64,000 bases of DNA from a virus (IMGVR_UViG_3300031957_002393:20373-84372), one strand, 5' to 3'. Positions 9,619-30,229 are shown, numbered from the stretch's first letter. The notes: generated by a model from the sequence alone, not told the origin. A program made the numbers and translations.

Positions 9619-9639
9619 AACCACGCAGGAGAGTCCCTG

Positions 9640-10728: not shown

Positions 10729-10776
10729 TAGCTGGTTGAGACTGTTCCCCGAAGAGTGACATCGCCGCACAAGAGA

Positions 10777-10803: not shown

Positions 10804-10829
10804 CGTCGTTAGAGGGTGTTGACGCTCAC

Positions 10830-11915: not shown

Positions 11916-11917
11916 GT

Positions 11918-12982: not shown

Positions 12983-13278
12983 TCAACGTCCTCAAGCGGA
13001 AGCGATAGTTGCGTTCCCGTAATAGGACGCTTACCCGCCTTCATCGCGCCTCCGCATTGAAGCCACATGTCACGAAATGTCTCAGGGTCACCATTGGGAT
13101 CAATGGCAGCGGCATTGATCATTGCGGCCAGGGCAGGATGAGCGATTGTACGCATCCAAATAAGCAGGCGCATACCTTCACGGATAGCGGCTGAGCGGTT
13201 GGTGTTGCCCAGGCTCTCATCAAACTCTTCGATAAGGTGCCCGGGGACGGCAATAGAGAAGCGGTGGGTCTCGGCCAT
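12979..13278 (-). CDS. ribbon-helix-helix (CopG/Arc/MetJ-like) transcriptional regulator
   Basis: HRFSIAVPGHLIEEFDESLGNTNRSAAIREGMRLLI = RHH beta-strand + helices; start moved to ATG 13278 (minus-strand SD AAGGAG 6 nt upstream; track ORF extends to 13359). Confidence 0.55.
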   Translation of the reverse strand: MAETHRFSIAVPGHLIEEFDESLGNTNRSAAIREGMRLLIWMRTIAHPALAAMINAAAIDPNGDPETFRDMWLQCGGAMKAGKRPITGTQLSLPLEDVE

Positions 13279-13470
13279 GTAGTAGCTCCTTGCGATCACA
13301 GTGTCGCAGGCATGAGGTTTCATCGTACACGAGCCCACCGTAACCCGCTGGGCGTCCACCGCACAGACATTCAGCGCAAAAAATCACTCGCTTGCACACT
13401 CGCCGCCCCCGAGTTACCTGTGTGAAGGTCGGCGCACAAGGCGCTACGACCAGTGAGGGACCACAGGTCC

Positions 13471-13484
13471 CTTGACACGTCAAG
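13471..13484. promoter_or_regulatory. CTTGACACGTCAAG palindromic site (operator/promoter-like) just upstream of SD of 13501 gene
   Basis: Exact copy of recurrent 12-mer TTGACACGTCAA; contains TTGACA; in divergent intergenic region next to RHH regulator. Confidence 0.5.
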
Positions 13485-13500
13485 ACTTTAGGGAGCAAAC

Positions 13501-14053
13501 CATGCCCATCGTAACCAGTGACGAACATCTGCACATCTTGACGACACTGAAAGGTGCACTCAACGGTAGCGCACGAAAAGACTTCCCTGCAGAGGTGTAC
13601 GATTGCACCTCCGATGACAGCCCTTTCGTTGCGATCGATTGGGTCCATGCAGCTACACGTCAACGACTGCTTCTGTGGCTACTCGATACATGCAACGAAG
13701 TGACGTGGATCAAGAAGGCGGCGCATACAGGCTACCCCATGATCACATGTGCGTTGCTTCAAGACGAGTTCACGATCGACATGGCTTCCCTTTGTTTAGA
13801 CTACGGACCTACAACGGGAGAAGAAGACCAAGCAATCGTGTTGACACAAGCTGTGTTAAGGGCCATTGACGCAATGAAGACAAAGGGTGAGGAAGAAGCA
13901 CCTCCATCGAAGCTACAAGAGATCATGCAACTGCTAACAGACTATGAAGGCGAACGCCTCAAGTACGCAACCCTAGTGACAGACACCAGCGTCAACGTGT
14001 ACAACTACGAACAGAGAAACATCACAACGATTCTACGGGACAATAAGGAGTAG
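13501..14053 (+). CDS. hypothetical protein (184 aa)
   Basis: ATG 13501 with SD AGGGAG 5 nt upstream; track ORF begins earlier at 13472 inside the palindrome. Confidence 0.45.
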
Positions 14054-14056
14054 AGA

Positions 14057-14782
14057 ATGTCGACAGGCATCAACTACAACCTCGACACGGGACTTTACGA
14101 AGTACGCTGCAAGGATCCACTCCCTGTAGAGCAGGGCTACTTGTTTTGTTACCACGCAGCCAAGAATCGAGACATGGCGGAACGGATCGCACGTGAGCAC
14201 GATGGTGTAGTGCGAGCAGCCATCGACTATGAGGCATGCCAGCGAGTACACAAGTTCTGGTCCCTGTTAAGCGGAAAGACTCAACAACCTATACTTACAA
14301 TGGACGTAATGCGAGCAGTCGTGCGAGCAACGTTCAAGGGTCTATGGAGGCAATTGCGTGTGGCTGTAGTCAAAGCGTTAGCACGCAGTCTGCCTTTACG
14401 CGAACAAGATTACAACGCCAACACAATGGCGATCATCTACCTGATTGCAGAGGATGTCAAGAGTCACACGGAGCCCATGACACCAGAGGATAGGGAGGTA
14501 CAATCGCTCATCATCCAGGCGTGTAAGCAAAACGCACGCCTTCGCTACTACTTCGCGGCAGAGTTGAGCATTAACGCAAACCGTAGCGATCGCATGGCAC
14601 CGAACAACATCTGTTACAACATCGCCATGGCGCTGTGGGGTGTAAAGGCAGAAGGTAAATCGCGTAAGGCATGTATGTACTACGACAACGAAGAGTACAT
14701 CAACATGTATCAACACATCAACCAGGATGACGCCCTCGAAGCTACATGGCTGCAGTGGCGAGATGGGACCACAGCCTCTTGA
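14057..14782 (+). CDS. hypothetical protein (241 aa)
   Basis: ORF 3 nt after previous stop; SD AAGGAG upstream. Confidence 0.45.
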   Translation: MSTGINYNLDTGLYEVRCKDPLPVEQGYLFCYHAAKNRDMAERIAREHDGVVRAAIDYEACQRVHKFWSLLSGKTQQPILTMDVMRAVVRATFKGLWRQLRVAVVKALARSLPLREQDYNANTMAIIYLIAEDVKSHTEPMTPEDREVQSLIIQACKQNARLRYYFAAELSINANRSDRMAPNNICYNIAMALWGVKAEGKSRKACMYYDNEEYINMYQHINQDDALEATWLQWRDGTTAS

Positions 14783-14791
14783 CACGTCAAG
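14778..14791. promoter_or_regulatory. CTTGACACGTCAAG palindromic site upstream of SD of 14809 gene
   Basis: Exact 14-bp copy; followed by GAGTAGAAGGAGTAAAAGATG. Confidence 0.5.
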
Positions 14792-14808
14792 AGTAGAAGG
14801 AGTAAAAG

Positions 14809-15174
14809 ATGACGAAGGATCCACAAGCATGGTGCTGCACAAACTGCGGCCACCATTTGGGCGTAGGCATGGAAAATGTGTGCACAATTTGCAAGGTGTG
14901 CACGCAACGCATGTATTGGCAACCATCAGGTTGCTGGGGAATGAAGAAACCACGGGAGGAAGAAGGCATGAGTGACAACGAAGCGACGAAGGACTACATC
15001 AAACAAGCGCTAAAGGAGCAGTTGGCCAGGGAGGTAGAGCGGTGTAACCATATCTGCGAGAAAAGCGTAGAAGCGGAAGTAGCGAGGTACAAAGCAGCCG
15101 CTAAAGCTGCGGGTGTAGACGGTGAGCACAACAACACGACGATTAACGTCGTGGTCACAATCGACTGGTATTAG
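14809..15174 (+). CDS. Cys-rich (zinc-binding) protein (121 aa)
   Basis: WCCTNCGHH...CTICKVCTQ; SD AAGGAG. Confidence 0.45.
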   Translation: MTKDPQAWCCTNCGHHLGVGMENVCTICKVCTQRMYWQPSGCWGMKKPREEEGMSDNEATKDYIKQALKEQLAREVERCNHICEKSVEAEVARYKAAAKAAGVDGEHNNTTINVVVTIDWY

Positions 15175-15188
15175 GAGTAAACACAACC

Positions 15189-15452
15189 ATGGCTGAAGGC
15201 ACGAAGCAACAACTCATAGAAAAGTACAACGAGGCAGTTAACGAACACATCAAACGGATGAAGCATAAGCACCTCAGAGAACTATACAAGTTTGAAGCGA
15301 TCATCTCCGTAGGCAGCGGTGGTAAGTTCCATGCGGTACCAGCGGAATTAGCGATCGCACGGCGCGACAACGTTGACTTCTTGAACACACCTGAACCCAG
15401 CCTAAAGAAGCTGCGTTATTGGGGTAAGAGGTTGAAGGAATTTGAGGGGTAG
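15189..15452 (+). CDS. hypothetical protein (87 aa)
   Basis: ORF with upstream AGGAG; Lys/Glu-rich. Confidence 0.4.
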   Translation: MAEGTKQQLIEKYNEAVNEHIKRMKHKHLRELYKFEAIISVGSGGKFHAVPAELAIARRDNVDFLNTPEPSLKKLRYWGKRLKEFEG

Positions 15453-15517
15453 GAGGAGGCAAATCGACTCGGGGGCGACATGAGCGACACCTCGGGGGCG
15501 ACACCCATCAGCAAAGT

Positions 15518-15531
15518 GTTGACACGTCAAG
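15518..15531. promoter_or_regulatory. GTTGACACGTCAAG palindromic site in noncoding region
   Basis: Third intergenic exact copy within 2 kb; flanked by CTCGGGGGCGACA x2 direct repeat (15490-15505) and CGCCCCCGAGTCTACGGGGGCG hairpin (15559-15580). Confidence 0.45.
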
Positions 15532-15654
15532 AGCACGGGGTGACAGCCCGCGACCACGCCCCCGAGTCTACGGGGGCGAAGGGATAACAACACGAGGAAG
15601 TGAAGAACAGTAGCACGGAGTAACATTGAGTAACAATCACACAGCATCACACCG

Positions 15655-15775
15655 TGATAATTCCAAATTGAAAAATCAAATTTTTTTATTATCATTGATC
15701 AACATAAATAAAACAAGGTTTGCAGCATACGTATAACATAATAGTCAGGTAAATAGGAAAAAGTAGGCGTATTAC
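15655..15775. other. AT-rich island (~120 bp, <30% GC) in otherwise GC-rich genome; candidate DNA-unwinding element/origin or strong promoter region
   Basis: aattccaaattgaaaaatcaaatttttttattatcattgatcaacataaataaaacaagg...; no ORF; followed by TATACGTATA palindrome at 15866. Confidence 0.4.
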
Positions 15776-16011
15776 GAGAGACACATCGCTTAAATCCCGC
15801 GCGCCGCCCTGGGGGGACGGCCTCGGGGGCCTTGAAAAAAATCGTTCCGCACCTCCCTTCGTGTCGATCGGTCATATACGTATACGGGCATGGGGGGTTC
15901 CACTATTCGTGGGGGCACTTAGACTTTCCCCTCGCAAGGGGACGGCGTTAGTGTCAACCGAACACTATACTTATTGTCATCGTGACACTATGTACCGCAC
16001 TGGTAGCTGGC

Positions 16012-16041
16012 ACGAAAAAGCCTCGCAGTGGAAGGCGAGGC
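16012..16041 (-). terminator. rho-independent terminator for minus-strand genes
   Basis: GCCTCGC-AGTGGAAG-GCGAGGC stem-loop; on minus strand followed by TTTTTCG (plus-strand AAAAAG at 16015-16020); 30 nt after stop of 16072 gene. Confidence 0.6.
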
Positions 16042-16071
16042 TATAGGCTTCTGGGTATGGCGACCGGTCGA

Positions 16072-16362
16072 CTATGCGGCCGCGTTCCACCAATGGGGAG
16101 CGCCGAACCGCAGTGCGAGGAAGGTGCGATCGATTTCGTACTTGACGAGCTGCACTGCGAAATGTGCGGCCATGAAGGAAACGTGATCTTCGGAACCATG
16201 GCCCAAAGCGGTCTGCACCGACTTCACGCAAAAGGGCTGGCCGCTTTCGATCATGCTCTCGACGATCTTGCACGCCTTTTCTTTGCGGAGTTCAACCGTA
16301 AACAGGCGATGGTGACGCATAGCGGTGCGACCCGAATGGACGACAGGGTAGGCTGTGAACAT
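16072..16362 (-). CDS. hypothetical protein (97 aa)
   Basis: Start set to ATG 16362 (minus-strand ACAATGGAGATCGATCAATG: SD GGAGAT); track ORF longer (to 16434). Confidence 0.45.
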   Translation of the reverse strand: MFTAYPVVHSGRTAMRHHRLFTVELRKEKACKIVESMIESGQPFCVKSVQTALGHGSEDHVSFMAAHFAVQLVKYEIDRTFLALRFGAPHWWNAAA

Positions 16363-16383
16363 TGATCGATCTCCATTGTGAGA

Positions 16384-16403
16384 CACAGACAGTGTAATCG
16401 ATC
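16384..16403 (-). promoter_or_regulatory. 20-bp direct repeat CACAGACAGTGTAATCGATC (copy 1), ~10 nt upstream of SD
   Basis: Identical 20-mer again at 16720-16739, same position relative to SD GGAGAT of the next gene. Confidence 0.45.
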
Positions 16404-16440
16404 CATCGCTACGCGGCAAGGGATCGATCATCAAGCGATC

Positions 16441-16698
16441 TTAGAAGATGTCGATCGCTTCGCCATTGTCGATCGCTTCGTTGATCGCGTCGCTGAAGTC
16501 GGTGATGTCCCAACCCGTAGTATCAGTCTCACACCAGTAACCACGGGTCATCGGAACTGCTACACCGATGTCATCAAAGCACAACCACGGACCGTTGCGG
16601 GCCATACGGATATCACCGTCCATCATAGCCGAGAGATCGGCCAGCATCTTTGACGAGATGACAGGGTTGTGACGGTCGGCAGAGTGCGGCATGGGCAT
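16441..16698 (-). CDS. hypothetical protein (EAID-repeat C-terminus)
   Basis: Start set to ATG 16698 (minus-strand ACGGAGATTCAAACCATG); tandem GTCGATCGCTTCG DNA repeat encodes EAIDNGEAID. Confidence 0.45.
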   Translation of the reverse strand: MPMPHSADRHNPVISSKMLADLSAMMDGDIRMARNGPWLCFDDIGVAVPMTRGYWCETDTTGWDITDFSDAINEAIDNGEAIDIF

Positions 16699-16719
16699 GG
16701 TTTGAATCTCCGTTGGGGG

Positions 16720-16739
16720 CACAGACAGTGTAATCGATC
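16720..16739 (-). promoter_or_regulatory. 20-bp direct repeat CACAGACAGTGTAATCGATC (copy 2)
   Basis: Exact repeat of 16384-16403. Confidence 0.45.
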
Positions 16740-17127
16740 ACCCGAGGAATGCAAGGGGCAAGATCCACGCGATCGCAACGACACCGATAGAAGCGCCGAT
16801 GGCATTGTGGCGACGGTGCATAGCGTCGATCGTTGACTCGATACCCGCCCACCACAACGGATCGCGAGTGTCTACGATGACTCGCTGGTCGACAGTGATC
16901 GACGCGCCACCGGTCGAGAGGTTGAGAGCGAGTCGACGGGTAGCGATACCCCCGCGTGCACGGGGCACGATCCGCAGCTCGACACGGTAGCTGGAGACCA
17001 GCGCCGCTACACGAGAGGCATAGTGTCGGATCGACACGATCGCCCGGTACCGCGCCCCCTCAGTAGAATCGATCGCGTGGGTCATAGCAGCGAGAGTGAG
17101 AAGTGCGACGATAGCGAGAGGATACAT
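16738..17127 (-). CDS. membrane/secreted protein with N-terminal signal/TM (MYPLAIVALLTLAAMTHA)
   Basis: Start set to ATG 17127 preceded by ACAATGGAGATCATAATG (same SD context as neighbours). Confidence 0.45.
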   Translation of the reverse strand: MYPLAIVALLTLAAMTHAIDSTEGARYRAIVSIRHYASRVAALVSSYRVELRIVPRARGGIATRRLALNLSTGGASITVDQRVIVDTRDPLWWAGIESTIDAMHRRHNAIGASIGVVAIAWILPLAFLG

Positions 17128-17204
17128 TATGATCTCCATTGTGACGCCGATTGTCTATCAGTGATCACTGACAGGTGCCAGTGATCAAAGATGGACGATC
17201 GGAA

Positions 17205-17459
17205 TCAATCACCGTTGACGTATTCCGTGATCGCGTCGCACTCTGCAATGGCCCGATCAAGCGCTTCGGAAAGGATGCCATCGTCAATCTCGGGGCACTT
17301 GCGGGCCAGCTCGATAGCAGTACCGATCGCTGAAAACCGGTGCCAGTGCTCCTTGCACTCTTCTGTAGTGCGCAAGTATTCAGCGACGCGCACAACGGCA
17401 GCATCCCACGCAAGGGGCGTATGTGAGAGGCCAGAAGGCAAAGAATAAAGAGTAGACAT
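17205..17459 (-). CDS. hypothetical protein (84 aa)
   Basis: ORF, first gene of minus-strand cluster; upstream 580-bp noncoding region. Confidence 0.4.
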   Translation of the reverse strand: MSTLYSLPSGLSHTPLAWDAAVVRVAEYLRTTEECKEHWHRFSAIGTAIELARKCPEIDDGILSEALDRAIAECDAITEYVNGD

Positions 17460-18040
17460 GGCGGGATCTCCTTTGATTGAGACACGACACTGCTACCGCA
17501 GCGATCACGGCATGTCCACAAAAGAATCATGTCCATTATATACGCGAAAGGCGACCGCCTATTGCAAGTATTGGGCCAATTGGACATTGGCACGGGGAAT
17601 GCATTAGTGGGAGTGCTTATGGTCCCGTCTCCAGGCGCCGATAGCATAGTGACTATCGACCTTTTCGTCTTTGTTATTGTTATACCTTACGACCCTTTAC
17701 TTATGTTTTATGTGTCTACCTCTACCCTCTTTTCACCTACGCACTGCTACCATGGGGGTTTATGCGGAGTGTATTGTATGGATCATTACTACATGAATGC
17801 CCCGATGACTCGGGGGCGATCGAGTGAGCATTTTTACTTACCAGGGGGGCGCCCCGTCGACTCGCTGGGGCGATCCCGCGGTGATCGTGTTGACTATGAT
17901 CCCCTTGACGCCTGTATTTCCGATGTCGTCCGAAGATTCTTTTAAAACAACCCTTGCCATTGGGGACCCGTAGACATAAGCTCTCTGTGTCGGAAGGGAA
18001 GCGGCGCCCCGCTGCTACCAACGACAGAGGAGATCAAACA

Positions 18041-18565
18041 ATGCCAAAGCGCAAAATTCTGCCCCGTGTTACGTGGCTGCAAGTCACTGGAGACCTGTCA
18101 CCCGAGGACTACGGTGGAATCTTCGCAAGGGGTAGCCTCTCCAGTTACAGCCGCGACTACGATACCGTGGAGATTCTGCGGATCGAACGCAAAACCGATC
18201 TCGTCGGCGCCGATGCCTTGACAGACGACGATCCCGATGCATACTGGACAAGCGAAGCGGAGATCGATCGCAAGGATCTTGCATCCTTGTGGGAAGGTCC
18301 GAAAGGACAAGCTGTGCGGGATCAGTTTGATCCCGCAATGACCTACCCCGACCCTCGCAAGTGCAGTCTGTTCGATCTGGCGTGCCTTGCGTCAGAGCTT
18401 GCACAGTACGGCTACCTCGGGTGGGATGAAACCTCAGACATTTCGGGGCACGAGATTAGCAAGCGTTACCGCTTGCGCGACTACAACGGTCGATCGATCC
18501 GTCGAGCATTCAAGGTCGGACAGAGGGAACATGATCGTGAGGTTGCCGATCACAATCGGCGATGA
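18041..18565 (+). CDS. hypothetical protein (174 aa)
   Basis: ATG 18041 with SD GAGGAGA 7 nt upstream. Confidence 0.45.
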   Translation: MPKRKILPRVTWLQVTGDLSPEDYGGIFARGSLSSYSRDYDTVEILRIERKTDLVGADALTDDDPDAYWTSEAEIDRKDLASLWEGPKGQAVRDQFDPAMTYPDPRKCSLFDLACLASELAQYGYLGWDETSDISGHEISKRYRLRDYNGRSIRRAFKVGQREHDREVADHNRR

Positions 18566-18691
18566 TAGCATAGATCCATGATTCATCATGGATCGTAATG
18601 GTAATCCGCTGGCCCATTGTTGGGTTGCGTTGACGGGCCACCGGGTTACCTTTACGATCAATGAAGATCGTTTCATCGGGAGATACAAGTA

Positions 18692-18961
18692 ATGCCTGTG
18701 GTCAATGATCATCGGCCCGAAGATCGCAAGGGTGATCGATGGGCAGTAGTGGGCACAGATTCTTTCATGTCCGGTACCAGTTTCGCACGGGGCGGGGCCA
18801 GCTATGCGGCCTGGAGTGTGCGGGATCGTGCGGAGCTGGCCATCGCAGAAGCATACGTGAGAGCAAGATCGGACATGCGGCGCGCCCGGATCGTGGATCT
18901 CCACGATTACCGGCCTAAGTGCAAACAGTTTTCGATCTATGCTTACACAGAGCAGAGCTGA
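18692..18961 (+). CDS. hypothetical protein (89 aa)
   Basis: ATG with upstream SD-like GGGAGA. Confidence 0.4.
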   Translation: MPVVNDHRPEDRKGDRWAVVGTDSFMSGTSFARGGASYAAWSVRDRAELAIAEAYVRARSDMRRARIVDLHDYRPKCKQFSIYAYTEQS

Positions 18962-19051
18962 TCCGGTGTTCACGCTTGCATCATAGCGATCGCCTTGCTA
19001 TGGTGCTGGCGTAAGCAACGGAACAAACAACAGGCAGAGGAGATACAAACA

Positions 19052-19525
19052 ATGCGAACAACAGAAGCACGCTACACGATCGGGCAACGCTACTCGCGCA
19101 ACGCTACAGGCAACGGCTACAGGCCCGCTACCTACGGGGAATGGCACGCCGTGACACTGCGATACAAGCGCAACGAGATCACGATCCTTGTGGATCGATC
19201 CATGGTCGATCGTATGATCGTCCGGCGGGTCATCGGCTCGGCTGTGTTCTGTCTCGCCGATACAAACCCTCGTTACGGCACGGCTTCCTTTATCGTGCTC
19301 GATATGGAAACCGAGATCCGGCATGGATCCACGGTTGACATCGGGGACGGGGAAGCATACGATCTGACGGGTACCACGGGTGATCTTTTCTTTCAGGGAG
19401 AAGAGTGGACCGCGTTTCTACACCCTGATATGGATCCGTGCGCTGACAACACCCCAGATCCTTTCGACCTTGACGATCTCACAGTGATCCGACGCGTGAT
19501 CGACTATTGGGGAGAAGTGTGTTAG
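19052..19525 (+). CDS. hypothetical protein (157 aa)
   Basis: ATG 19052 with SD GAGGAGA; leader GTAAGCAACGGAACAAACAACAGG. Confidence 0.45.
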   Translation: MRTTEARYTIGQRYSRNATGNGYRPATYGEWHAVTLRYKRNEITILVDRSMVDRMIVRRVIGSAVFCLADTNPRYGTASFIVLDMETEIRHGSTVDIGDGEAYDLTGTTGDLFFQGEEWTAFLHPDMDPCADNTPDPFDLDDLTVIRRVIDYWGEVC

Positions 19526-19679
19526 ACGGTTGACATTGCAGCGCTGTAGCGATAGCCCCGTCGACTCGGGGGCTACATAGGCCACAAGATCCGGTGCCTA
19601 CCTTTGGGTATCGTCCACCTGGACGGTACCGTTAGGTAACCATCGGGCCGCATAGGCTCACACTCTGGAGATACAAGCA

Positions 19680-20069
19680 ATGCCATACTATAACGAATAC
19701 CCGCACGATCACGCGCACCGTCGATCGATCCCCACGATCCATATCGGACAGTATCAGACCGGCGCGTGCCCTGTCTGCGGTGAAGATACCGATGACAGCC
19801 GCGATACGTGCACCCATTGTGACGAGGAGATCGATCGCTTGATTGATCCTGTTACCGTGTGGGGCGCCCGGTGCATGATTCCGGGATGCTTGCCGGAAAG
19901 TGATACGGTGTTCTTCGGGGATAGCGGATCTCCATTGTCCGCAATGCTGGAATACCTCCAGCTCTTCGATCTCCCGGGAGATCCGGTGTGCATTGAATCG
20001 CTTGCGGCTCTCACTGAAGCACGCTACGATAGCGATCACAAGGCTCTCACGGAATGGATCAAGGGCTAA
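19680..20069 (+). CDS. Cys-rich zinc-finger protein (129 aa)
   Basis: CPVCGEDTDDSRDTCTHCDEE; SD GGAGAT. Confidence 0.45.
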   Translation: MPYYNEYPHDHAHRRSIPTIHIGQYQTGACPVCGEDTDDSRDTCTHCDEEIDRLIDPVTVWGARCMIPGCLPESDTVFFGDSGSPLSAMLEYLQLFDLPGDPVCIESLAALTEARYDSDHKALTEWIKG

Positions 20070-20170
20070 CCCGGGGGTAATCTTTTCAGCGGAAATTGTT
20101 TGACACTACGATAGCCGCTGATTAGATCACCTTCGGAAAGCAAAGCAACCCAAACAAAGGAGATCGAACA

Positions 20171-20761
20171 ATGGTTGCAAACATCCACCGCCCACACTCT
20201 CACTACCTCGATTACAACCGCAAGCTGCCTGCGGATATCCGGGGCATGGTCGAAAGGATCCACGCTCTCACCGGTGACGCTTCTTTCGGGATCCGGCTAC
20301 ACGCTCCCGGCGGAGGTAAAGCCTACTACAGTATGGTCAAGGTTGACACGTCAACCCCCTGCGGCTACGCGGAAAGCGCACGGCGCCAGAGCTTCACCGG
20401 GCTGGGCCATCTTCGGATCGCTTTGTCAGGATACCTTGCCGCTTTGGAGGAAAAGCTCATGATCGCTACCGTCGTGTGCCTGCATTGGCAGGGGCGCAAC
20501 GATCGTGAAAGCCAGAGCACGGGTAAGATCATGGTCAACGGTCAACCGCTCTGCTACAAAGATGGCGCCCAGGTGCCTGCTCTTTACGACGGCTGCCATC
20601 ATCGCACGGATCACGGTGACGTTCGCCGCATCCTGACTGCGCGGGGCTACAGCGCTTTGATCGACATCGACGTGATCGCTATTCCGGTCGCACGAAAGGG
20701 CGATCTCTACGGTGACTCCGCTCCGCTATGGTCTATCATGGACAAGATCAACGGCGAATAA
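20171..20761 (+). CDS. hypothetical protein (196 aa)
   Basis: SD AAGGAGAT 7 nt upstream; contains an internal TTGACACGTCAA copy. Confidence 0.45.
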   Translation: MVANIHRPHSHYLDYNRKLPADIRGMVERIHALTGDASFGIRLHAPGGGKAYYSMVKVDTSTPCGYAESARRQSFTGLGHLRIALSGYLAALEEKLMIATVVCLHWQGRNDRESQSTGKIMVNGQPLCYKDGAQVPALYDGCHHRTDHGDVRRILTARGYSALIDIDVIAIPVARKGDLYGDSAPLWSIMDKINGE

Positions 20762-21017
20762 ACAACGATCTTTCCCTTGCATCATAGGTCGACATCGATT
20801 AAGGTGTGAGGGAGAGAAAGAAAACAAGGCTCTATCCGAGAGCCGCATAGCATACACGAGCACGGGGATCGGCGTTGATCTCCACCTTCGGACGGGATCG
20901 ACGGTCCATCATGGATCTCTCTCGCTCGGGACACTAACCATTGTGCGCCAGATACCTCGTGTTACGTGTGTGCTATCCGATTCTCGGCAAAGTCAAAGGA
21001 CTATATAGGAGTGAAAC

Positions 21018-21428
21018 GTGTACCTGTTCATCATCAGGGGCTTGCCCGGTAGCGGTAAGACCACGCTCGCAAACACGATCAACCCTTACGGGTTGTGCGT
21101 CGCTGCGGACGATTACATGGTTAACGCTAACGGCAGCTACGCTTTCGATCCGAAGCGGCTAAGCGAGTGCCACCGCGCGTGCCTGGACGCCGTGATCCGT
21201 GACATGATCGACGGTGATACCACGACGCCGATCGCCGTGCACAATACCTTCTCGCGCCCGTGGGAATGGCGAGACTACATCGACGCTGCGGTGGAGCACG
21301 GTTACACGCCCATTGTGATCGACCTTTACGATCGGGGCATGTCCGATCGTGAGCTGGCCGAAAGCACGGTGCACGGTGTGCCCGTGGAGACCATCGCCTC
21401 CATGCGCAGCCGTTGGTACAGGGGATAG
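21018..21428 (+). CDS. P-loop NTPase / small kinase (AAA_33 / polynucleotide-kinase-like)
   Basis: GTG start after SD AGGAG; N-terminal Walker A FIIRGLPGSGKTTLA. Confidence 0.5.
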   Translation: MYLFIIRGLPGSGKTTLANTINPYGLCVAADDYMVNANGSYAFDPKRLSECHRACLDAVIRDMIDGDTTTPIAVHNTFSRPWEWRDYIDAAVEHGYTPIVIDLYDRGMSDRELAESTVHGVPVETIASMRSRWYRG

Positions 21429-21532
21429 CTTTCCGGTTGCTACCTTTCGGGTAAAAGGTTATTGACAGATAGCAAGTTACCCGATAAGTAACCATCGGAC
21501 AGTGAACACACTGTAACATAGGAGCAAAAGCA

Positions 21533-22243
21533 ATGGAAACGATCAAGGTCGCAAGCCGTGAGATCAACGGTACCACGTTCACTCTCCAGGCAACGGTGGT
21601 CCCTGATCACGAGCCGGTTACCTACCCCGTCTCTGACCTGATTCTACAGGGAGACACGGTGGTGATCCGCTCCGGATACCGTGCGTATGAACAGGACGTA
21701 GTCCACGAATACATGATCACCGATACGGGCCCCGATCTCTGCACCGATCTGCGAATCGACGGCGCCTATCAGGTGGAGCGACCGTCACACGTTGACGGAT
21801 CGTGGTTCAAGGCGAGCGCACGGATCCGGCAAGGCGCCAGCTTCGACGGCTCAGAGCTGATCGTGTGGCGCAAGCTCACTGACTTCTATGTCAGTGACGA
21901 TCACCCGCTCGACAAGGCGATCGCAAACTGGCGAGAGCACGTTACCGACATCGCAAGTGGTAATCTGTCCCCTTGGGAGGTCATCGTGGAGCTACACGTC
22001 ACTCACCCTGACGGCTCCGAAGAGACGCGCGAGATCGATCGAATGGGATCGGGGTGGTGGGAAAGCGGTACGTCCATGGTAGACATTGCAGTCGGTTCGG
22101 GCGCCATCGCTACCCCGGACAGTGACACGGCGCACAAGGGTCTCAACCGCGAGATCAAGGAATGGATCGATTACAAGCGAGCCCGCATGAACGCTGCTAT
22201 GACATCATGGGCAGACGCCGATCGGATCCGGGCCGCTTTGTGA
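21533..22243 (+). CDS. hypothetical protein (236 aa)
   Basis: SD TAGGAG 7 nt upstream. Confidence 0.45.
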   Translation: METIKVASREINGTTFTLQATVVPDHEPVTYPVSDLILQGDTVVIRSGYRAYEQDVVHEYMITDTGPDLCTDLRIDGAYQVERPSHVDGSWFKASARIRQGASFDGSELIVWRKLTDFYVSDDHPLDKAIANWREHVTDIASGNLSPWEVIVELHVTHPDGSEETREIDRMGSGWWESGTSMVDIAVGSGAIATPDSDTAHKGLNREIKEWIDYKRARMNAAMTSWADADRIRAAL

Positions 22244-22333
22244 ATCGTGTGTTCACACTGGCATAGTGACGATCACTTTGTTACTATGCCTCTGTAAGCA
22301 AACGGTGCAACAAAGGTACCATAGGAGCGAGCA

Positions 22334-22939
22334 ATGGAACGAAAAGAATTCACGCCGGCGGAAGCCTACGATCTCGTCAAGGGGTTTGCGTTGCGCAGTC
22401 CCTACAGCAAGTGGGCGCTACCCGCGATGACACCCGAAGCAAGGGCGAACCTTGCAGCGGTCTGCGGATACCTTCTCGGGTCCGACAAGGACAACGCCAT
22501 GATCACCGCGTCGCGCCTTGTGGAGAAGATGGAATACTTGCGTACCTACGGGGGCGAACGAAACGTCGAAATGATCGATATGGATCGACATTGCCAGGAG
22601 GAGATCGACGACGCACCGCGCTACCGTGTCGACGTGCCCAGCTTCCGTGTGCTTGTGAGCTGTGCTGGTGAGATCGGATCCTTCGGTGTCCGATGGTTCC
22701 GACACGAGCCTGACGAGTCCGCACTACCTCGGCGGTGGGCGGCTCCTGACACGTACCCGGTCGACGTGTGGGATTCTCTGCCCCGCGATACCCGTGGGCC
22801 TGCGATCCTTCGGACCGTGCGCAGAGAAGACGGCACCTATGCTCGACTCTACCCTACTTACCGTGAGTGTATGTCGGGCATGATGGTGGCGCGAGGGCTG
22901 CTCACTGAGCCCACGGCGGAATGGTCGATTCACACCTGA
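22334..22939 (+). CDS. hypothetical protein (201 aa)
   Basis: SD TAGGAG; leader GTAAGCAAACGGTGCAACAAAGG. Confidence 0.45.
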   Translation: MERKEFTPAEAYDLVKGFALRSPYSKWALPAMTPEARANLAAVCGYLLGSDKDNAMITASRLVEKMEYLRTYGGERNVEMIDMDRHCQEEIDDAPRYRVDVPSFRVLVSCAGEIGSFGVRWFRHEPDESALPRRWAAPDTYPVDVWDSLPRDTRGPAILRTVRREDGTYARLYPTYRECMSGMMVARGLLTEPTAEWSIHT

Positions 22940-23020
22940 AAGTATGTTGCTTTCCTTTACCGTCCGGTTATATTATCGGGCGGGTAAGCAAGGTAACAAA
23001 CAATAACACAGGAGGAAACG

Positions 23021-23530
23021 ATGGAAAAGTTTATGGTGATCGCTCTACAGGAAACGGGCCCGTTCCTTTCGGGTTTCGACGGCCACGTCACTATGCGCAC
23101 GCTGTACGCTACGCAAGGGATCGATGACTGTTTCAGGTACTGTAGCCCGCAGATCCTTATCGACCTGACGCCGATCCGGTGTGAGATCGTGGGAGCGGAA
23201 GGTATAGAAGAGGTACACACGATCTTCCCTGGAGACTCCGAAGAGGAGCAACGGGAAGCAATGTTCGAGGAGGAATTGGCATGCCTTACTACTCAGGGCG
23301 ATAGCGCCGTGGTCCCTTTCGATACCATCGTGGACCATTACAAGCTGGCACGGGTAGCGGAAGCAAACGGACGAAACGGTGCATGGACGATCGATGACAT
23401 GGCTCAGTGTATGCGCGTGCCTCACGAGGTGATCGAATTGGATCCCGATGACTCTTCGGAGATCGCAGAGGGTAAACCGTGGTACGATACAGTAATGGAA
23501 TTGGAGGCGGAAGGGGCGATCGCTCTGTAA
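23021..23530 (+). CDS. hypothetical acidic protein (169 aa)
   Basis: SD AGGAGGA; leader GTAAGCAAGGTAACAAACAATAACAC. Confidence 0.45.
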   Translation: MEKFMVIALQETGPFLSGFDGHVTMRTLYATQGIDDCFRYCSPQILIDLTPIRCEIVGAEGIEEVHTIFPGDSEEEQREAMFEEELACLTTQGDSAVVPFDTIVDHYKLARVAEANGRNGAWTIDDMAQCMRVPHEVIELDPDDSSEIAEGKPWYDTVMELEAEGAIAL

Positions 23531-23616
23531 TCGAAGGTTCACACTTGCACCTTAGCGATCCGATTGTTAAGGTGTATGCGTGAGCAATCGACTACACAAA
23601 GGAATAAGGGGAAACG

Positions 23617-23889
23617 ATGGCTTTGACCTTTGACGAATACCTCACTTCGGTTAAGCCCGAAGTAGCGGAAGCTGTGCGAAAGCACTTCAACCCGGCAGAC
23701 TGGACGCTCACTTTCGATCAAGCCGATGACGAATACAGAGGATCCAACGATCCCGCATGGCCCGCATACTGTTACGTGTGGCGTGATAGTGCCGTGCGCT
23801 TCACTGTCAACGGGTTTGGTCCGTCAAGCGCCTTCGCTGCTATGCACGGGCTACCTTTCCCTCTCTCCGACGCTGAGCTGAACACTTAA
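23617..23889 (+). CDS. hypothetical protein (90 aa)
   Basis: SD AAGGGGA. Confidence 0.4.
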   Translation: MALTFDEYLTSVKPEVAEAVRKHFNPADWTLTFDQADDEYRGSNDPAWPAYCYVWRDSAVRFTVNGFGPSSAFAAMHGLPFPLSDAELNT

Positions 23890-23893
23890 ACCT

Positions 23894-24196
23894 TTGGAGA
23901 TCGTCGTGGAAAAAATGATCGCCATTCAAGCAACGGTTACCCGTACCAATGTCCAGGGCTGGTCGAGTAGCGTACAGATCCCCACGTTCTATGTTGACAT
24001 GGGCGATGTATACGCGGTCCAGTTACAACGCGGTTACTCCGAAGCCACGGCAGAGCAGATCGCAACCGACGCGGCGGCCATGCGGGCCGTCGGGATTCTC
24101 GACCCTCACAACGATGCGGATTGCGTTAGCGTTGACGCGCTCTCACCTGAGCCTCACCGCTGCTACAGTAGCTACACAACAGACAAGCGGAGCTAA
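23894..24196 (+). CDS. hypothetical protein (~95-100 aa; start 23894/23906/23915 uncertain)
   Basis: ORF with SD GGAGAT at 23896. Confidence 0.35.
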   Translation: MEIVVEKMIAIQATVTRTNVQGWSSSVQIPTFYVDMGDVYAVQLQRGYSEATAEQIATDAAAMRAVGILDPHNDADCVSVDALSPEPHRCYSSYTTDKRS

Positions 24197-24198
24197 TC

Positions 24199-24459
24199 AT
24201 GTCACTCACTTGGAACGCAAAGGATCGCACGTTGGGTGGTCACACTCACGCTGACCTTGACGATCAGGGATACGTGAGGCTATACTCTATCGAGCACTGC
24301 GAACACTGCGGCTGTGAGTGTATGGCACCCAATCCGATCAAGTGCTTCACGGGACCGCAGATCCTCGCGCTTGCGATCGGCATGGTCAATCGCCGAGCCC
24401 CGGCTTCCGAGCTGTACGCCAATGAAGACGGCGAGGCGGTGTGCGACAAGTGCTATTAG
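24199..24459 (+). CDS. Cys-rich protein (86 aa)
   Basis: HCEHCGCEC...CDKC. Confidence 0.4.
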   Translation: MSLTWNAKDRTLGGHTHADLDDQGYVRLYSIEHCEHCGCECMAPNPIKCFTGPQILALAIGMVNRRAPASELYANEDGEAVCDKCY

Positions 24460-24517
24460 GATCCGGTTGACGATTCCTAATCCAACGGTTACGATGATTC
24501 CACGGGAGTAAACTACA

Positions 24518-24862
24518 ATGGAAAACAAAGTCTACACGAGCGCAGAGATCCTTGCGATGGACGTTACCGCGCTGGCCGACATACTGTGCGAGTCCGATCA
24601 CTTCCTGTACCGCTTGACGGAAGGCGAGGCGGGATGGTTCGGGTTTGTTGACGGGCGCTATGCGATCGCCGACGCCATCTACTATGCACGGGTCGACATG
24701 GATCCGATCGAAGAGGGAACCGTCATTGACGTGGGAGGGTGCGGCGGCTACGCTGCTATCCGACAAGCGCTTACCGACGACGGAACCGACCGCGCTACCA
24801 TGCTCTCCGACGACACTGCTCTACAGCGGATCGTGTGGATCATCGGACCCGAAGAGGAGTAG
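24518..24862 (+). CDS. hypothetical protein (114 aa)
   Basis: SD GGGAGTA. Confidence 0.4.
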   Translation: MENKVYTSAEILAMDVTALADILCESDHFLYRLTEGEAGWFGFVDGRYAIADAIYYARVDMDPIEEGTVIDVGGCGGYAAIRQALTDDGTDRATMLSDDTALQRIVWIIGPEEE

Positions 24863-25101
24863 GGCGGGTCACTGCCTACGGGGTCACCTCCTGACACACC
24901 GCTGCAAGTGAAAGTCAGTTCCAAGTAGCAGCAGGGACCACGCGCCCAAAGGAACCCAACATGCCAGAAGTAGAAAAGGTCCTCGTGCGCTCTGGTGACG
25001 TTGACGTGTGAACACCGATGACTCGTGGCGTTCGGGGGCGTTATCCCCCAGTCGACTCGCCAAAAGGCGACAACACAAAAGCAATACCAGAGGAAAGCAA
25101 C

Positions 25102-25362
25102 ATGAGTAACAACACCACCATCATTCGTGAGCGATGGGACAACAGGATCGACGAATACGTGCCTTACATCTGGACGGAAGGTGACACAGTGTGTATGGAT
25201 CCGGGGTCCGATTGGGCGTCGGGTACGCTCGAACACAACGGGTTCAAGTGGAATAAGGAAGGCACCTACATGGTCAAAGAAGAAGACGAAAACTACACCG
25301 CTCGTCAGATTGCGATCATTGTCGCTAATGGTGGAGCTGGTAGCACGAGGAGTGCATCGTGA
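25102..25362 (+). CDS. hypothetical protein (86 aa)
   Basis: ATG 25102 after AGAGGAAAG. Confidence 0.4.
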   Translation: MSNNTTIIRERWDNRIDEYVPYIWTEGDTVCMDPGSDWASGTLEHNGFKWNKEGTYMVKEEDENYTARQIAIIVANGGAGSTRSAS

Positions 25363-25934
25363 GCAACAACGAAACCAACCCCGATCGACTGTGCATCGGC
25401 CCGTATGTCAACATGCACGGCCAGGAGCGACGGCCCGTGTGCCTTGGGGACTACGTGTCCGGTGATCGTGCAGGCGATACTTTCCGAAACAAGCGAGGCA
25501 GGGTGATCGGCTTCACCGACTGCGACGATGGTAGCTGCCTTGCGGTAGTACAGATCGAAGGCGAGCAGAACAGACTGTTCACCCGCTACGATCTCCGGCT
25601 ACTGTGCGAAGAAGCGCACCCGTGCATCGGTGAGAGCCTACACGATCCAGCTGCACCTGCAATGTGTAACCTACCTGACGCTTACATCTTCGCTGTCCAC
25701 GGGACACTGTCCGGCGAAGAGGTAGACCAGGAAGCAGACTACCGAGTGCAGGAACAGGTGTTCAATGGATCGCGCTCGGGATGGATCGTGTGGCAGTATA
25801 CTGTGCCCGGGGGTGACTCTGCGCTCGTAGGGTGCGGTCGCCCGACAAGCGACGACAAAGAACTGAATTACCCGCGTGACTTTGTTGGATCCGACGCACT
25901 ACAGATTATGCGGTGGGCGGGCATGAACGTTTGA
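25359..25934 (+). CDS. hypothetical protein (191 aa)
   Basis: ATGA overlap with previous gene. Confidence 0.4.
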   Translation: MSNNETNPDRLCIGPYVNMHGQERRPVCLGDYVSGDRAGDTFRNKRGRVIGFTDCDDGSCLAVVQIEGEQNRLFTRYDLRLLCEEAHPCIGESLHDPAAPAMCNLPDAYIFAVHGTLSGEEVDQEADYRVQEQVFNGSRSGWIVWQYTVPGGDSALVGCGRPTSDDKELNYPRDFVGSDALQIMRWAGMNV

Positions 25935-26091
25935 GCCTTTGCGTATTCCGTTTGGTGTCCGAGGAATCAGGCTTTAAACTACACGAGCCGATGCCTCATG
26001 GTTCCTCGGGTGCCTCACCGAAAGCACAACGGTAACCACTGGACAACAACGATCACCGCTGTTATAGTGACAGTGAACAAAAGAGAGTAGA

Positions 26092-26298
26092 ATGGAAACC
26101 ATCGTTACCTTCGTCAACATCCTCGCCTGGATCACTTTCGCAGTGACTACGATCTGCACGCTGGGGGGGCTTTACGAAGTGGCATTCCAGTCCCCGTTTG
26201 ATCGAGCACTGTTCGGTCGACGCACCCTGATGTATCGGTGGCCCATTGCGGCTACGATTTCCGGTGCGTGGCTACTGGCACAGTACATCAACACCTGA
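26092..26298 (+). CDS. small membrane protein (68 aa, 2 TM)
   Basis: Hydrophobic helices ILAWITFAVTTICTLGGL and WPIAATISGAWLLAQ. Confidence 0.4.
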   Translation: METIVTFVNILAWITFAVTTICTLGGLYEVAFQSPFDRALFGRRTLMYRWPIAATISGAWLLAQYINT

Positions 26299-26350
26299 TA
26301 CCACACGATCCACACGAGCAACAAAGCCCACAACAACAAAGGAACCGACA

Positions 26351-26632
26351 ATGCCTAAGCGTCAACCCTTCGTCACCCTCTCCACGCTCGCCGGTCATCG
26401 TGTGATGGCACAGCACAAAGGTACGGTGCGACTCCGAAACGACAACAACGGTCGAGAGTGTGTGGTCAACGTGAGCCGCAATGGTCATCGGGTGCAGAGC
26501 TGTACCTTCGACAGCCCCAACACCGGTGGTCAGTGGCACAGCGCGGCGACCCCGAGCGGCATCGACTACGTTGCTTCGTGGGTCTCTCCCTCTACTGCAC
26601 GTCGACGTTTCAAGTGTGAGACGGGGGTGTAG
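26351..26632 (+). CDS. hypothetical protein (93 aa)
   Basis: ATG 26351 after AAAGGAAC. Confidence 0.4.
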   Translation: MPKRQPFVTLSTLAGHRVMAQHKGTVRLRNDNNGRECVVNVSRNGHRVQSCTFDSPNTGGQWHSAATPSGIDYVASWVSPSTARRRFKCETGV

Positions 26633-26697
26633 GTGAGGCCGTGTGACAACGATCCCTCGTGATTGCACGAGGGTAACAACGGTAACAGGAGAGTAAC

Positions 26698-27213
26698 ATG
26701 TCTGACGGATTCAACCTCATCGGCGCCTATGTTCGCATGAACGGCGACGATGAACACTGGCGTATCATTCGACTGCTTGACACACCTGACGGGCAACGTC
26801 CGCTATGCGTCAACATGACCACGGGCGCGATGATGGACATTGGGTGGCAATATCTTGCCCTCGTGAATATCAGCGCTGTGGAGTCGATGGGTGTGAATGC
26901 CGACGATTCCACAATCACTGGCCTCACAGTCGACTCGGGGTCGATGGCTGACAACGCCACTCCCACGAGCCCAGGTCCAGCAGTTCCAAGTGTTGACACG
27001 TCAACAGGCGAGGCAGGGAACACAGCGCCCGGTCCGAGTCGCAACGAGCTGTTGGAGCTACTGATCGATCTCACCGATGCGTGGGCCTATTCTACACCTG
27101 AACAATTCGACGAGGTGTTTAAACATCAAATGTCAGAGCTGATCGAGAAGCACCCGAGCGCATACGCTTCCATTGTCGAATCGCTACGATTCTACATGGA
27201 TAAAGAAGCGTGA
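26698..27213 (+). CDS. hypothetical protein (171 aa)
   Basis: SD AGGAGAG; contains internal GTTGACACGTCAAC copy. Confidence 0.4.
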   Translation: MSDGFNLIGAYVRMNGDDEHWRIIRLLDTPDGQRPLCVNMTTGAMMDIGWQYLALVNISAVESMGVNADDSTITGLTVDSGSMADNATPTSPGPAVPSVDTSTGEAGNTAPGPSRNELLELLIDLTDAWAYSTPEQFDEVFKHQMSELIEKHPSAYASIVESLRFYMDKEA

Positions 27214-27508
27214 CAGCTCTCGGTATCAGTCGACGGGACGTAGAGTCGTTGCGGCTACAAGGGACCTTGTCGAATGGTACGAGGGTTGCAACAGGACGAC
27301 AAGTCTACATGATCGACAATCCGATGGTACACGGAATGTACATCGGTGTCACGCCTGACGGCTACGTCACCATCCTACACGACAACAAGAGTCAATGGGA
27401 AAAAAGTAGTCGACGGGATGAATTCAACCGCCTATGTAGGAAAGTGTACGGTGAGCGGTGGCGTACACGAGTCTACAAGAACAACACAGATGGAAAAAGG
27501 AACACACG

Positions 27509-28075
27509 ATGAACAACGATACCATGAACGCTACTACTTTTGACTTCGGGGATGGTGCCGGTCCTGTGCCTGCGAAGCGTCATATCAACCCCGATGGCAG
27601 CGAAGGTGGATGGGTGGCATCGACCGCAATTGTTGCGGGTAGCGCGTGGGTGTTCGGGAATGCACGGGTGTACGGGGATGCATGTGTGTACGGGTATGCA
27701 CAGGTGTTCGGGAATGCACGGGTGTACGGGTATGCACGGGTGTACGGGGATGCACAGGTGTTCGGGAATGCACAGGTGTACGGGGATGCATGTGTGTACG
27801 GGAATGCATGTGTGTACGGGAATGCACGGGTGTGCACCACCGCTGACTGCGCTTTCGGGAGCACAGGAGATTACGCCTGGACAGCATACACCACTAACAC
27901 AACTACCTTCCTCAAGTATGGGTGTGAAGCACATGCTATCGAGTGGTGGCGTCAGCAGGACAGCAAACTCTCGGTGAAGCACGGTCACGACGAGAACCAT
28001 TGGGCGTATGTCAAAGCAGTCATCGCGATCGCAGAAGTAATCGAAGCCAACAGGGTTAAGGAAGGTGAGGAATGA
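27509..28075 (+). CDS. hexapeptide-repeat (left-handed beta-helix-like) protein
   Basis: 10 tandem V[FY]G[NDY]A[RQC] hexapeptides encoded by 18-bp tandem DNA repeat; ATG 27509 after AAAAAGGAAC. Confidence 0.5.
   Translation: MNNDTMNATTFDFGDGAGPVPAKRHINPDGSEGGWVASTAIVAGSAWVFGNARVYGDACVYGYAQVFGNARVYGYARVYGDAQVFGNAQVYGDACVYGNACVYGNARVCTTADCAFGSTGDYAWTAYTTNTTTFLKYGCEAHAIEWWRQQDSKLSVKHGHDENHWAYVKAVIAIAEVIEANRVKEGEE
27650..27829 (+). repeat. 10 x 18-bp in-frame tandem repeat GTGT(A/T)CGGG(A/G/T)ATGCA(C/T)(G/A)G
   Basis: Direct reading of 27650-27829; encodes the hexapeptide array. Confidence 0.85.
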
Positions 28076-28491
28076 GCAGTAGCAAAGCACATGAGCTTGT
28101 TGCGCAGGATCTCAAGCGACAAATCGAACGTATCGAAGGGATCACAAAGGCAGCAAAAAGCCGAGGGATCACAGACTTCGATGTCACCTGGCCATCGTTT
28201 AACCGCAAGGTAATCATGAGCGGCTACGTCACCTTCGCTTCGATAGAGAGTTTCATGCGCTTGGTGCCTGCCTTCGCAAACGGCAAAGCATACAGCTTTG
28301 AAATCAAAACACACGACGCAAAGTACGTGGAAGTGCAAGCGTCGCAGGGCTCAGATGTGTACATTCGAGTGATCGTAGTCGATGAAGCGGTGCCGCGAAC
28401 ACTTCACACGATCACGAGGATGATGAAGGTTGCCATGCAGCACATCAACAATGTGGATGAGTTCTTTGTCAAAGGGGCTGGTTGCGGTTAG
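28072..28491 (+). CDS. hypothetical protein (139 aa)
   Basis: ATGA overlap with upstream gene. Confidence 0.4.
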   Translation: MSSSKAHELVAQDLKRQIERIEGITKAAKSRGITDFDVTWPSFNRKVIMSGYVTFASIESFMRLVPAFANGKAYSFEIKTHDAKYVEVQASQGSDVYIRVIVVDEAVPRTLHTITRMMKVAMQHINNVDEFFVKGAGCG

Positions 28492-28608
28492 GGAGATAAG
28501 TGCGAACAGAGTCAACACAGTTGACCCCATCGACGAGGCGACAAGTCGACTCGGGGCGGGGGCCAGGGCTACACAGTAACACAACGTATACAGGTAAGGA
28601 GTTCTACA

Positions 28609-28950
28609 ATGCGCATCGAACATGACATGGACATCGATCACTACGGCATCGCACCCCGTGGGCGCCTGCGGCCTCGACACGTCAAGGCCATCACACGGGC
28701 CCAGATTCGGCGCGAGGGAGGCCATGGGCCCGCAGTGGTGGTGCAGGTGGGAGATGGAGGTAGGAGCCAGCGGGAGGCAGAGACGGCGGAGGACGTGCGG
28801 GTGCCTGCAAGGGACAGCGGGTGGATGGAACCCGTGGGTGTGGCTACCCCGGGGATGCACGTTGATGCAGCCCTTGGTGCAGGTATCATGGGAGCTGCGA
28901 TCGCTGTATTGATCTGGTTGCCGAGTGTAGTCCGATCGCTTACGGGGTGA
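28609..28950 (+). CDS. hypothetical protein (113 aa)
   Basis: SD AGGAG 9 nt upstream. Confidence 0.35.
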   Translation: MRIEHDMDIDHYGIAPRGRLRPRHVKAITRAQIRREGGHGPAVVVQVGDGGRSQREAETAEDVRVPARDSGWMEPVGVATPGMHVDAALGAGIMGAAIAVLIWLPSVVRSLTG

Positions 28951-28975
28951 ATGGTCGCACAAAAGGAACGAACGC

Positions 28976-30196: not shown

Positions 30197-30229
30197 AAAG
30201 GTATTACGCGGTGAGTGTCGACACACATG

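Follow-up and report, generated by a model that had tools for sequence, protein, structure and literature searches.

A near-saturated field of GATC sites over two divergent operons of small genes in an unsampled tailed phage

Why would a phage crowd one short palindrome into ten kilobases of its genome? Phages usually purge short palindromes, and the phage considered here does avoid many 6-bp palindromes, yet it pushes one 4-bp palindrome, GATC, near the maximum that its proteins permit, and does so in one block only. The DNA analysed is a viral stretch of 64,000 nucleotides (IMGVR_UViG_3300031957_002393:20373-84372, referred to in full as the window), and the block, at 16072..26298, holds 197 GATC sites, about 19/kb. 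This field spans exactly two divergent operons of small orphan open reading frames (ORFans) that lie between the structural and the replication modules. An original prediction, made from the sequence alone, had described a strong excess of GATC at 16-26 kb together with a Dam-like methyltransferase gene at the window end, and had considered a different codon bias, selection for the site or a distinct origin of the block, with methylation-dependent timing, SeqA-like sequestration or a decoy as conceivable roles. The follow-up analysis confirms the observation as real, strong and beyond what composition can give; the mechanism is a proposal.

The regional over-representation exceeds every null that was applied. 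At positions 16001-26000 there are 193 GATC (19.3/kb), against 37.7 expected from an order-0, 66.8 from an order-1 and 137.6 from a maximal-order Markov model. The region 1-16000 holds 63 sites (3.9/kb; 60 expected at order 0, observed/expected ratio 1.05), in keeping with the lower density originally ascribed to the structural module, and 26001-64000 holds 256 (6.7/kb; 146 expected at order 0, ratio 1.75), the window total being 512. Counted per kb, the profile runs at 0-8 up to 16 kb, at 12-28 across 16-26 kb and mostly at 4-10 beyond. Relative to simulated Markov chains fitted on the block itself, the observed number lies at z = 23.7 (order 0), 16.6 (order 1) and 5.8 (order 2), the order-2 model being over-conservative because its GAT and ATC counts are raised by GATC; chains trained on the remainder of the window give z = 14-26. 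When all words of 4, 5 and 6 nt are compared in an unbiased manner inside and outside the block, GATC (z = 25) and CGATC come out on top. The excess thus stays significant after the Markov correction that had been proposed as a check. The hand count from which the prediction started is exact: the 20 GATC that it gave for about 660 bp at 18.1-18.8 kb lie between 18181 and 18734. The roughly eightfold excess derived from it, however, describes this local peak and not the block as a whole, the mean of which is 5.1 times the order-0 expectation.

Could the excess be a by-product of proteins rich in Asp and Ile that are written with preferred GAT and ATC codons? Both amino acids are somewhat commoner in the block (Asp 8.5% vs 6.3%, Ile 6.2% vs about 4.9%), and ATC makes up 0.82 of its Ile codons compared with 0.63-0.64 elsewhere. 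The GAT share of Asp codons is unchanged (0.47 in the block, 0.43 and 0.49 elsewhere), so that of the codon bias originally claimed the preference for ATC stands, and the contrast between GAT in the block and GAC elsewhere does not. What differs is the dependence of the choice on the neighbouring codon. Before a codon starting with C, Asp is encoded by GAT in 62 of 77 cases in the block and in 25 of 59 in the structural module, while before any other codon the corresponding figures are 48/155 and 97/227; likewise, Ile following a G-ending codon is ATC in 90 of 101 cases in the block, against 30 of 59. Structural genes are free of such context-dependent codon choice, and a weaker version of it is present across 26-64 kb. 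Set against the 166 coding GATC of the block, three codon-aware nulls yield 99 (synonymous shuffle within each gene, z = 11.5), 73 (the same proteins written in the codon usage found outside the block, z = 13.3) and 68 (codon-order shuffle, z = 15.1). The intra-operon spacers are enriched as well, with 26 GATC in 1640 bp (15.7/kb vs 3.8-5.0/kb elsewhere). The unchanged GAT share, the codon-aware nulls and the enriched spacers together rule out that the excess merely reflects the amino-acid composition or an ordinary codon bias, an explanation to which we give practically no chance.

How far this selection has gone can be expressed in terms of opportunities, i.e. all positions at which the protein sequence would permit a GATC. 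The block has taken 166 of its 249 synonymous opportunities (67%), the structural module 55 of 275 (20%) and the other regions 30-45%. Saturation peaks on the plus strand at 18692..20761, where four genes use 79-89% of their opportunities and carry 19-34 sites/kb. Even the xGA/TCx frame, which needs the rare codons CGA, GGA or AGA, is occupied in 14 of 32 cases in the block and in none of 33 in the structural module. Such opportunities are themselves about 1.5 times commoner per codon in the block, which implies that the protein sequences and their dipeptide content have been shifted towards GATC too. GATC is enriched in all three codon frames, in both gene orientations and in the intra-operon spacers, and the sites of the leftward operon fall in the same two codon frames as those of the rightward genes. 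Between the two options of the original prediction, site selection is therefore strongly supported by context, frames, spacers and symmetric flanks, and simple codon bias is rejected. We conclude firmly that the DNA word GATC has been selected directly over both operons, with the signature of selection on DNA sites through synonymous positions, strong enough to shift amino-acid content.

The form of the sites indicates the level at which the word is recognised. With sites oriented by transcription, their flanks are symmetric at positions 1-5, and the sole preference is for C before and G after. CGATCG is indeed the commonest hexamer context, as had been noticed (30 of 193), although the same flank preference is also seen at GATC outside the block. 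No longer or asymmetric motif was found around the block sites, nor any paralogous repeat family as their source, the repeats in the block being short and present in two to four copies. The palindrome, its symmetric context and the enrichment across frames, orientations and spacers point to a recognition site in duplex DNA.

The edges and spacers bring in a different possibility, namely that GAUC was selected in early transcripts, for instance as the target of an endoribonuclease that clears early mRNAs, much as RegB of T4 cuts early mRNAs at GGAG. The left edge of the field is sharp: the dense series starts at 16128, and the edge coincides with a terminator-like hairpin and T-run (16019..16042, minus strand) situated just 3' of the leftward operon. 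Enrichment tracks the presumed transcribed units, with about 16 sites/kb in the intra-operon spacers, and two presumably untranscribed spacers carry only 2 GATC in 843 bp; these are the 566-bp non-coding gap that separates the structural module from the block (15453..16018; 2 GATC, not enriched, with an AT-rich core at 15640-15760) and a GATC-free stretch of 277 bp (17504-17780) between the operons. Nevertheless, a perfect palindrome with symmetric flanks fits duplex DNA and would be a 1-in-16 coincidence for RNA, the same genome encodes a probable methylase of the GATC family, and we know of no RNase of GAUC specificity; hence we hold selection at the RNA level to be highly improbable.

A further question is whether the block arose in this genome at all. 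The window is 100% identical to a JGI metagenome contig (3300076251 Ga0565006_000107, 92,564 bp) and to several Logan contigs. Its terminase TerL (5241-6983) shares at most 22-25% identity with known phage terminases, a TerL-based search of IMG/VR found no relatives, and none of 50,697 phage records proved near-identical to the block; the low TerL identity and the absence of a near-identical record place the window in an unsampled tailed-phage lineage. Relatives were available as metagenomic loci with 38% (L009-L012) or 68% (L013-L015) TerL identity, the 10-kb flanks of which end before any equivalent of the block. Two of the former (L009/L010; JGI 3300034072, Logan SRR10854513; about 96 and 89 kb, 69% GC) contain 8.5 GATC/kb vs 2.8 expected, evenly along the 22 kb seen; their excess is thus genome-wide and about threefold, unlike that of the block, which is regional.

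Such phages make it conceivable that the two-operon module was imported from a GATC-rich lineage and has not yet drifted, having no role here. In part, the distinct origin suggested originally is borne out by the composition of the block. The comparison of codon usage between 16-26 kb and the rest shows that it differs: third-position C, calculated without GATC-touching codons, is 0.387 in the block and 0.29-0.31 elsewhere. The tetranucleotide signature, with GATC and 3 nt on either side masked, correlates with that of other regions at r = 0.66-0.77, while those regions correlate with one another at 0.77-0.92. The left edge is an operon end, and phages with a genome-wide three- to fourfold GATC excess exist, both the above relatives and mycobacteriophages of subcluster B3, in which an approximately fourfold excess includes GGATCC and the host is reported to be without Dam methylation (PMC4841201). 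The B3 phages resemble the present case in accumulating the same palindrome against the usual avoidance; in the block, however, the excess is regional and operon-bounded, and GGATCC is not preferred over other flanks. An import would, moreover, merely shift the question to the donor, as 67-89% saturation still requires selection somewhere.

Nor does the rest of the genome look like a neutral background to one island. GATC usage declines from the block over the replication genes to the structural genes: the replication genes (26-64 kb) exceed the codon-aware expectation (z 4-6, occupancy 0.3-0.45), and the structural genes lie slightly under it (z about -3). The right edge is gradual, with an occupancy of about 0.85 at 18.7-20.8 kb, 0.65 at 21-25 kb, 0.4 at 26-31 kb and 0.1-0.7 thereafter; along the rightward operon it drops from 0.8-0.9 to 0.3-0.7. 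The weaker context-dependent codon choice over 26-64 kb and the deficit in late genes thus form a graded, genome-wide pattern, avoidance of CTAG is common to the block (0 copies) and the rest of the genome, and no donor or homologue was found for the largest block protein among 5.8 billion proteins. A mosaic origin without function therefore appears unlikely to us.

The candidate for a protein that acts on the sites is encoded at the window end. The window stops 67 codons into a gene (63799..64000, plus strand) for a probable D12-class (Dam/DpnM-type) N6-adenine DNA methyltransferase. The 67-residue fragment matches Pfam D12 (PF02086) with E = 4.6e-4 and 20.4 bits, just below the 22-bit cut-off, and contains an AdoMet-binding motif I of the FxGxG type (FFPFIGSGG, residues 33-41). 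An exhaustive HMMER search retrieved a protein of 287 aa (P0051) that is 64% identical over the fragment and is a clear D12 enzyme (62.2 bits, E = 8e-17), with an NDPPY motif IV and a conserved NGLxRxN hairpin; its closest solved relatives are DpnM (2dpm, E = 3e-15) and then EcoDam, both GATC-specific. A member of the P0051 cluster is encoded on a contig whose sample also contained the relative with 68% TerL identity; it is preceded by a primase-helicase series like that of the window and followed by UDG-like and PolA genes. Given the 64% identity and the same syntenic position, the methylase of this relative is an orthologue. The Dam-like gene of the original prediction accordingly holds as far as its 67 visible codons go. 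D12 enzymes with other target specificities exist; judged by its sequence relatives, the window methylase is likely to be GATC-specific, and its link to the block is circumstantial. The remainder of the gene was sought with an exact 51-mer, which no viral or JGI metagenome contig contained, and the fragment had no match in a protein word index; the exhaustive HMMER search alone led to an orthologue. Separately, the JGI contig stops at window position 63562, and the continuation 63563-64000 did not appear in the scans of viral and JGI contigs or in the protein index, so that the window must derive from another or a longer assembly.

What might the sites do? The explanation that we favour, while giving it somewhat less than an even chance, is that the block is a near-saturated GATC field of about 10 kb, selected on the duplex word, Dam-methylated, and acting through its density and methylation state. 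The sites would be substrates of the phage's own Dam-family methylase (63799), and virion DNA would then bear a dense field of N6-methyladenine (m6A) over the block genes. The infecting genome would be fully methylated and its early genes expressed; replication would turn the block hemimethylated or unmethylated, and sensors of the GATC state, SeqA in a Dam+ host or a phage factor, would preferentially bind the replicated block. Such binding would shut the early operons, and the GATC-poor late genes would remain accessible. A timer coupled to replication in this manner predicts a density graded from early through middle to late genes, and a role of density and methylation state is favoured because the density is graded, the late genes are slightly depleted, and saturation suggests that each extra site helps. 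We also consider, though as rather doubtful, that the phage's own Dam writes an operon-scale epigenetic mark, the m6A field over the early genes, whose state would serve as a clock or an identity tag. Such a mark, full on the infecting genome and diluted by replication, might, with the same doubt, end the early programme or tell parental from progeny DNA.

Known systems offer partial parallels to a field read by its methylation state. The E. coli oriC has 11 GATC in 245 bp, and the arrays of oriC and of P1 oriR are read by SeqA when hemimethylated. The block shares with them the word, a similar local density (20 sites in 660 bp, and 7 in 84 bp in its tightest cluster, 16400..16483), a putative Dam-family methylase and a function thought to depend on density. 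Its spacing is also that of SeqA-type arrays, in which two or more GATC share a stretch of about 31 bp: for 68% of the sites in the block the next GATC is no more than 31 bp away, vs 11% in the structural module. Unlike those arrays, which occupy a few hundred bp of non-coding DNA, it extends over 10 kb of coding sequence and has neither DnaA boxes nor phasing. GATC methylation state is likewise a temporal signal at P1 pac, a methylation-gated packaging site with seven GATC in a phage that encodes its own Dam, and at Mu mom and IS10, which are single-promoter Dam switches. These are discrete sets of 3-7 GATC within less than 200 bp at a defined protein-binding site; in the block, a search for a pac-type array revealed no repeated GATC-containing unit and no extended consensus. 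To our knowledge, none of the Dam switches is comparable to the block in size or coding context.

Closer in position, though not in extent, are the GATC clusters that occur within genes of E. coli and Salmonella (Henaut 1996; Riva 2004, PMC493266); in E. coli, about 76 genes scattered over 4.6 Mb have one short cluster each. The methylation-linked block of transcription proposed for them is itself unproven. Like these, the present clusters lie inside coding sequence, and six stretches at 16.4-20.9 kb, together with one more in the rest of the window, conform to the cluster definition used there; besides the tightest one, clusters of at least 4 sites with a mean spacing below 18 bp are located at 18230-18275, 19177-19216, 19433-19498, 19707-19736 and 20867-20914. 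The difference is that the field of the block runs without a break through about 20 neighbouring genes and takes 67% of the synonymous opportunities.

The same density is compatible with explanations in which the methylation state is not read as a timer. Dense m6A might protect or activate the DNA that enters or acts first, and the block, with its roughly 10 kb in a genome no shorter than 92.5 kb, recalls in size the first-step-transfer segment of T5. Possible routes would be nuclease shielding, easier strand opening, or RecA-type loading and recombination-dependent replication; both the explanation and these routes seem quite unlikely to us. A methylase beside replication genes favours fast, full methylation, the phage has an Mre11/SbcD-like nuclease and a relative an SbcC-like ATPase, the strong avoidance of many 6-bp palindromes indicates that nuclease pressure is real, and RecA nucleation and filament growth increase with the density of methylated GATC (PMC12403123). 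Protection, however, needs no extra sites, and fewer would be safer. In searches for DnaA boxes (TTATNCACA; none) and Chi (one site), the window showed nothing origin-like.

Alternatively, hundreds of GATC per genome could act as a decoy that soaks up host Dam, SeqA, MutH or a GATC nuclease, a proposal that we judge very unlikely, as we do the resulting disturbance of host replication control or defence. Near-saturation free of positional pattern and phasing is the density-dependent selection that a decoy predicts, but titration explains neither the confinement of the sites to one block nor the sparing of untranscribed spacers, and a Dam of the phage's own runs counter to titrating that of the host.

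Several observations weigh against the density- and methylation-dependent role that we prefer. A methylase located among replication genes could re-methylate the DNA fast and so shorten the hemimethylated phase. No helical phasing of block sites was detected at periods of 10-11.5 bp (z -0.8 to 0.7), and Pfam, PHROGs and NCBIfam scans of the 98 window proteins revealed no SeqA, MutH, restriction-enzyme or GATC-nuclease family. The block genes are presumed to be early, host-takeover genes from their size, position and orientation, and the divergent region between the operons yielded no sigma-70-like promoter. The codon usage and oligonucleotide signature peculiar to the block fit a separate origin or a separate expression class. 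Comparison with other phages is no more favourable. The relative with the orthologous methylase has about 4.4 GATC/kb vs 3.6 expected in its structural module (L013), with little context effect, and is likewise near expectation in its replication module (L015). Phage T1, which resembles the present phage in having a D12/Dam-type methylase among replication and recombination genes, differs in that its 4.8 GATC/kb (1.26x) are spread evenly along the genome, without a dense block. The two recovered modules of the relative and T1 show that a Dam gene alone does not give such a pattern. The largest block protein, used as a query for homologues in which the sites might be conserved, retrieved nothing but itself, and further assemblies of this phage, being 100% identical, offer no polymorphism at GATC sites. 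Finally, the phage is known from metagenome assemblies alone.

If the sites are methylated and read out, Dam-type epigenetic control, until now a matter of single promoters and origins, would come to include an entire temporal class of genes, and an operon-scale mark, if true, would be a form of temporal control not described for any phage. A literature search for a regional or operon-bounded, near-saturated GATC block in a phage yielded no report, although absence from the searched literature is no proof. If, on the other hand, the block was imported, it testifies to a phage lineage, as yet unsampled, in which GATC usage is extreme.

The block is set in a genome of the following layout, derived from gene calls and family scans. 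The structural and packaging module occupies the first 15.4 kb (1000..15452 as listed) and includes TerL and the portal (6980-8671). It is followed at 16.07-26.3 kb by the two divergent operons, which together comprise about 20 small genes, and at 26.3-63.7 kb (26299..63000 as listed) by nucleotide-metabolism and replication genes, among them ThyX, a MazG-like protein, a nucleotide kinase, a DUF927 primase, a helicase and an Mre11/SbcD-like phosphoesterase, as well as six tRNAs. The leftward operon (16072..17459, minus strand) consists of four genes of 96, 85, 133 and 84 aa with 12-25 GATC/kb, and the rightward one (18041..26298, plus strand) of 16 small, mostly acidic ORFan genes that share GGAG-type ribosome-binding sites. 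Block proteins have a median length of 114 aa and a median pI of 4.8; the only block gene with family matches encodes a P-loop ATPase of the AAA_33/polynucleotide-kinase-like type (21018..21428, plus strand).

The divergent control region between the operons (17460..18040), which includes the GATC-free stretch, contains two copies of a hairpin-forming motif of 16 nt, CCCCGNNGACTCGGGG. An ORF called within this region (17619-17945, 108 aa) overlaps both hairpin motifs, has an odd, hydrophobic low-complexity translation and is probably not a gene. In the window as a whole the motif occurs 18 times with at most two mismatches, compared with 0.5 expected, at 10783, 15560, 17800, 17852, 19556, 25013, 26925, 29775-30151, 30985/31005, 32078-32382 and 35199. 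The copies are often intergenic and often in the orientation of the downstream gene, and CCCCGNNGACTCGGGG may serve the phage as a promoter, an operator, a terminator or an element for RNA processing. On the other side of the leftward operon, the gap that extends to its terminal gene (15453-16071, 619 bp) shows a sigma-70-like promoter match (15668-15695, plus strand) followed by GC-rich structured sequence, and had no match in Rfam; a genome terminus, an origin or the locus of a small RNA is conceivable here.

The palindromes that the phage avoids form a set of their own. CTAG occurs 15 times in the window, vs 245 expected, and several 6-bp palindromes with 18-25 expected copies each are nearly absent (GAGCTC 0, CACGTG 1, CAGCTG 2, CCGCGG 2, GCCGGC 4). 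AGATCT is present once, vs about 11 expected from the flanks of the 512 GATC. Such scarcity suggests strong restriction pressure, including that of a BglII-like enzyme not blocked by Dam methylation.

Logan short-read contigs of this phage end or begin at 5119, 17525, 21309, 23521, 30979, 41604 and 48874. Position 21309 is a contig start in two separate runs (SRR17634824, SRR8639428). Coverage, strain variation or repeats are possible causes of these breaks. The Rfam scan of the window reported tRNAs and nothing else; the six genes, at 38355-39190 and 42855-42930, comprise Gln, Asn, Phe, Lys, Thr and one more (38474-38542), whose anticodon loop is abnormal according to ARAGORN and which nevertheless reaches an Rfam tRNA score of 43.8 bits. 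Lastly, the gene at 27509-28075 contains near-tandem repeats (27649-27833), which are about 89-92% self-identical when shifted by 54 and by 108 bp and code for a beta-solenoid of the YdcK type (GNARVYGDA...).

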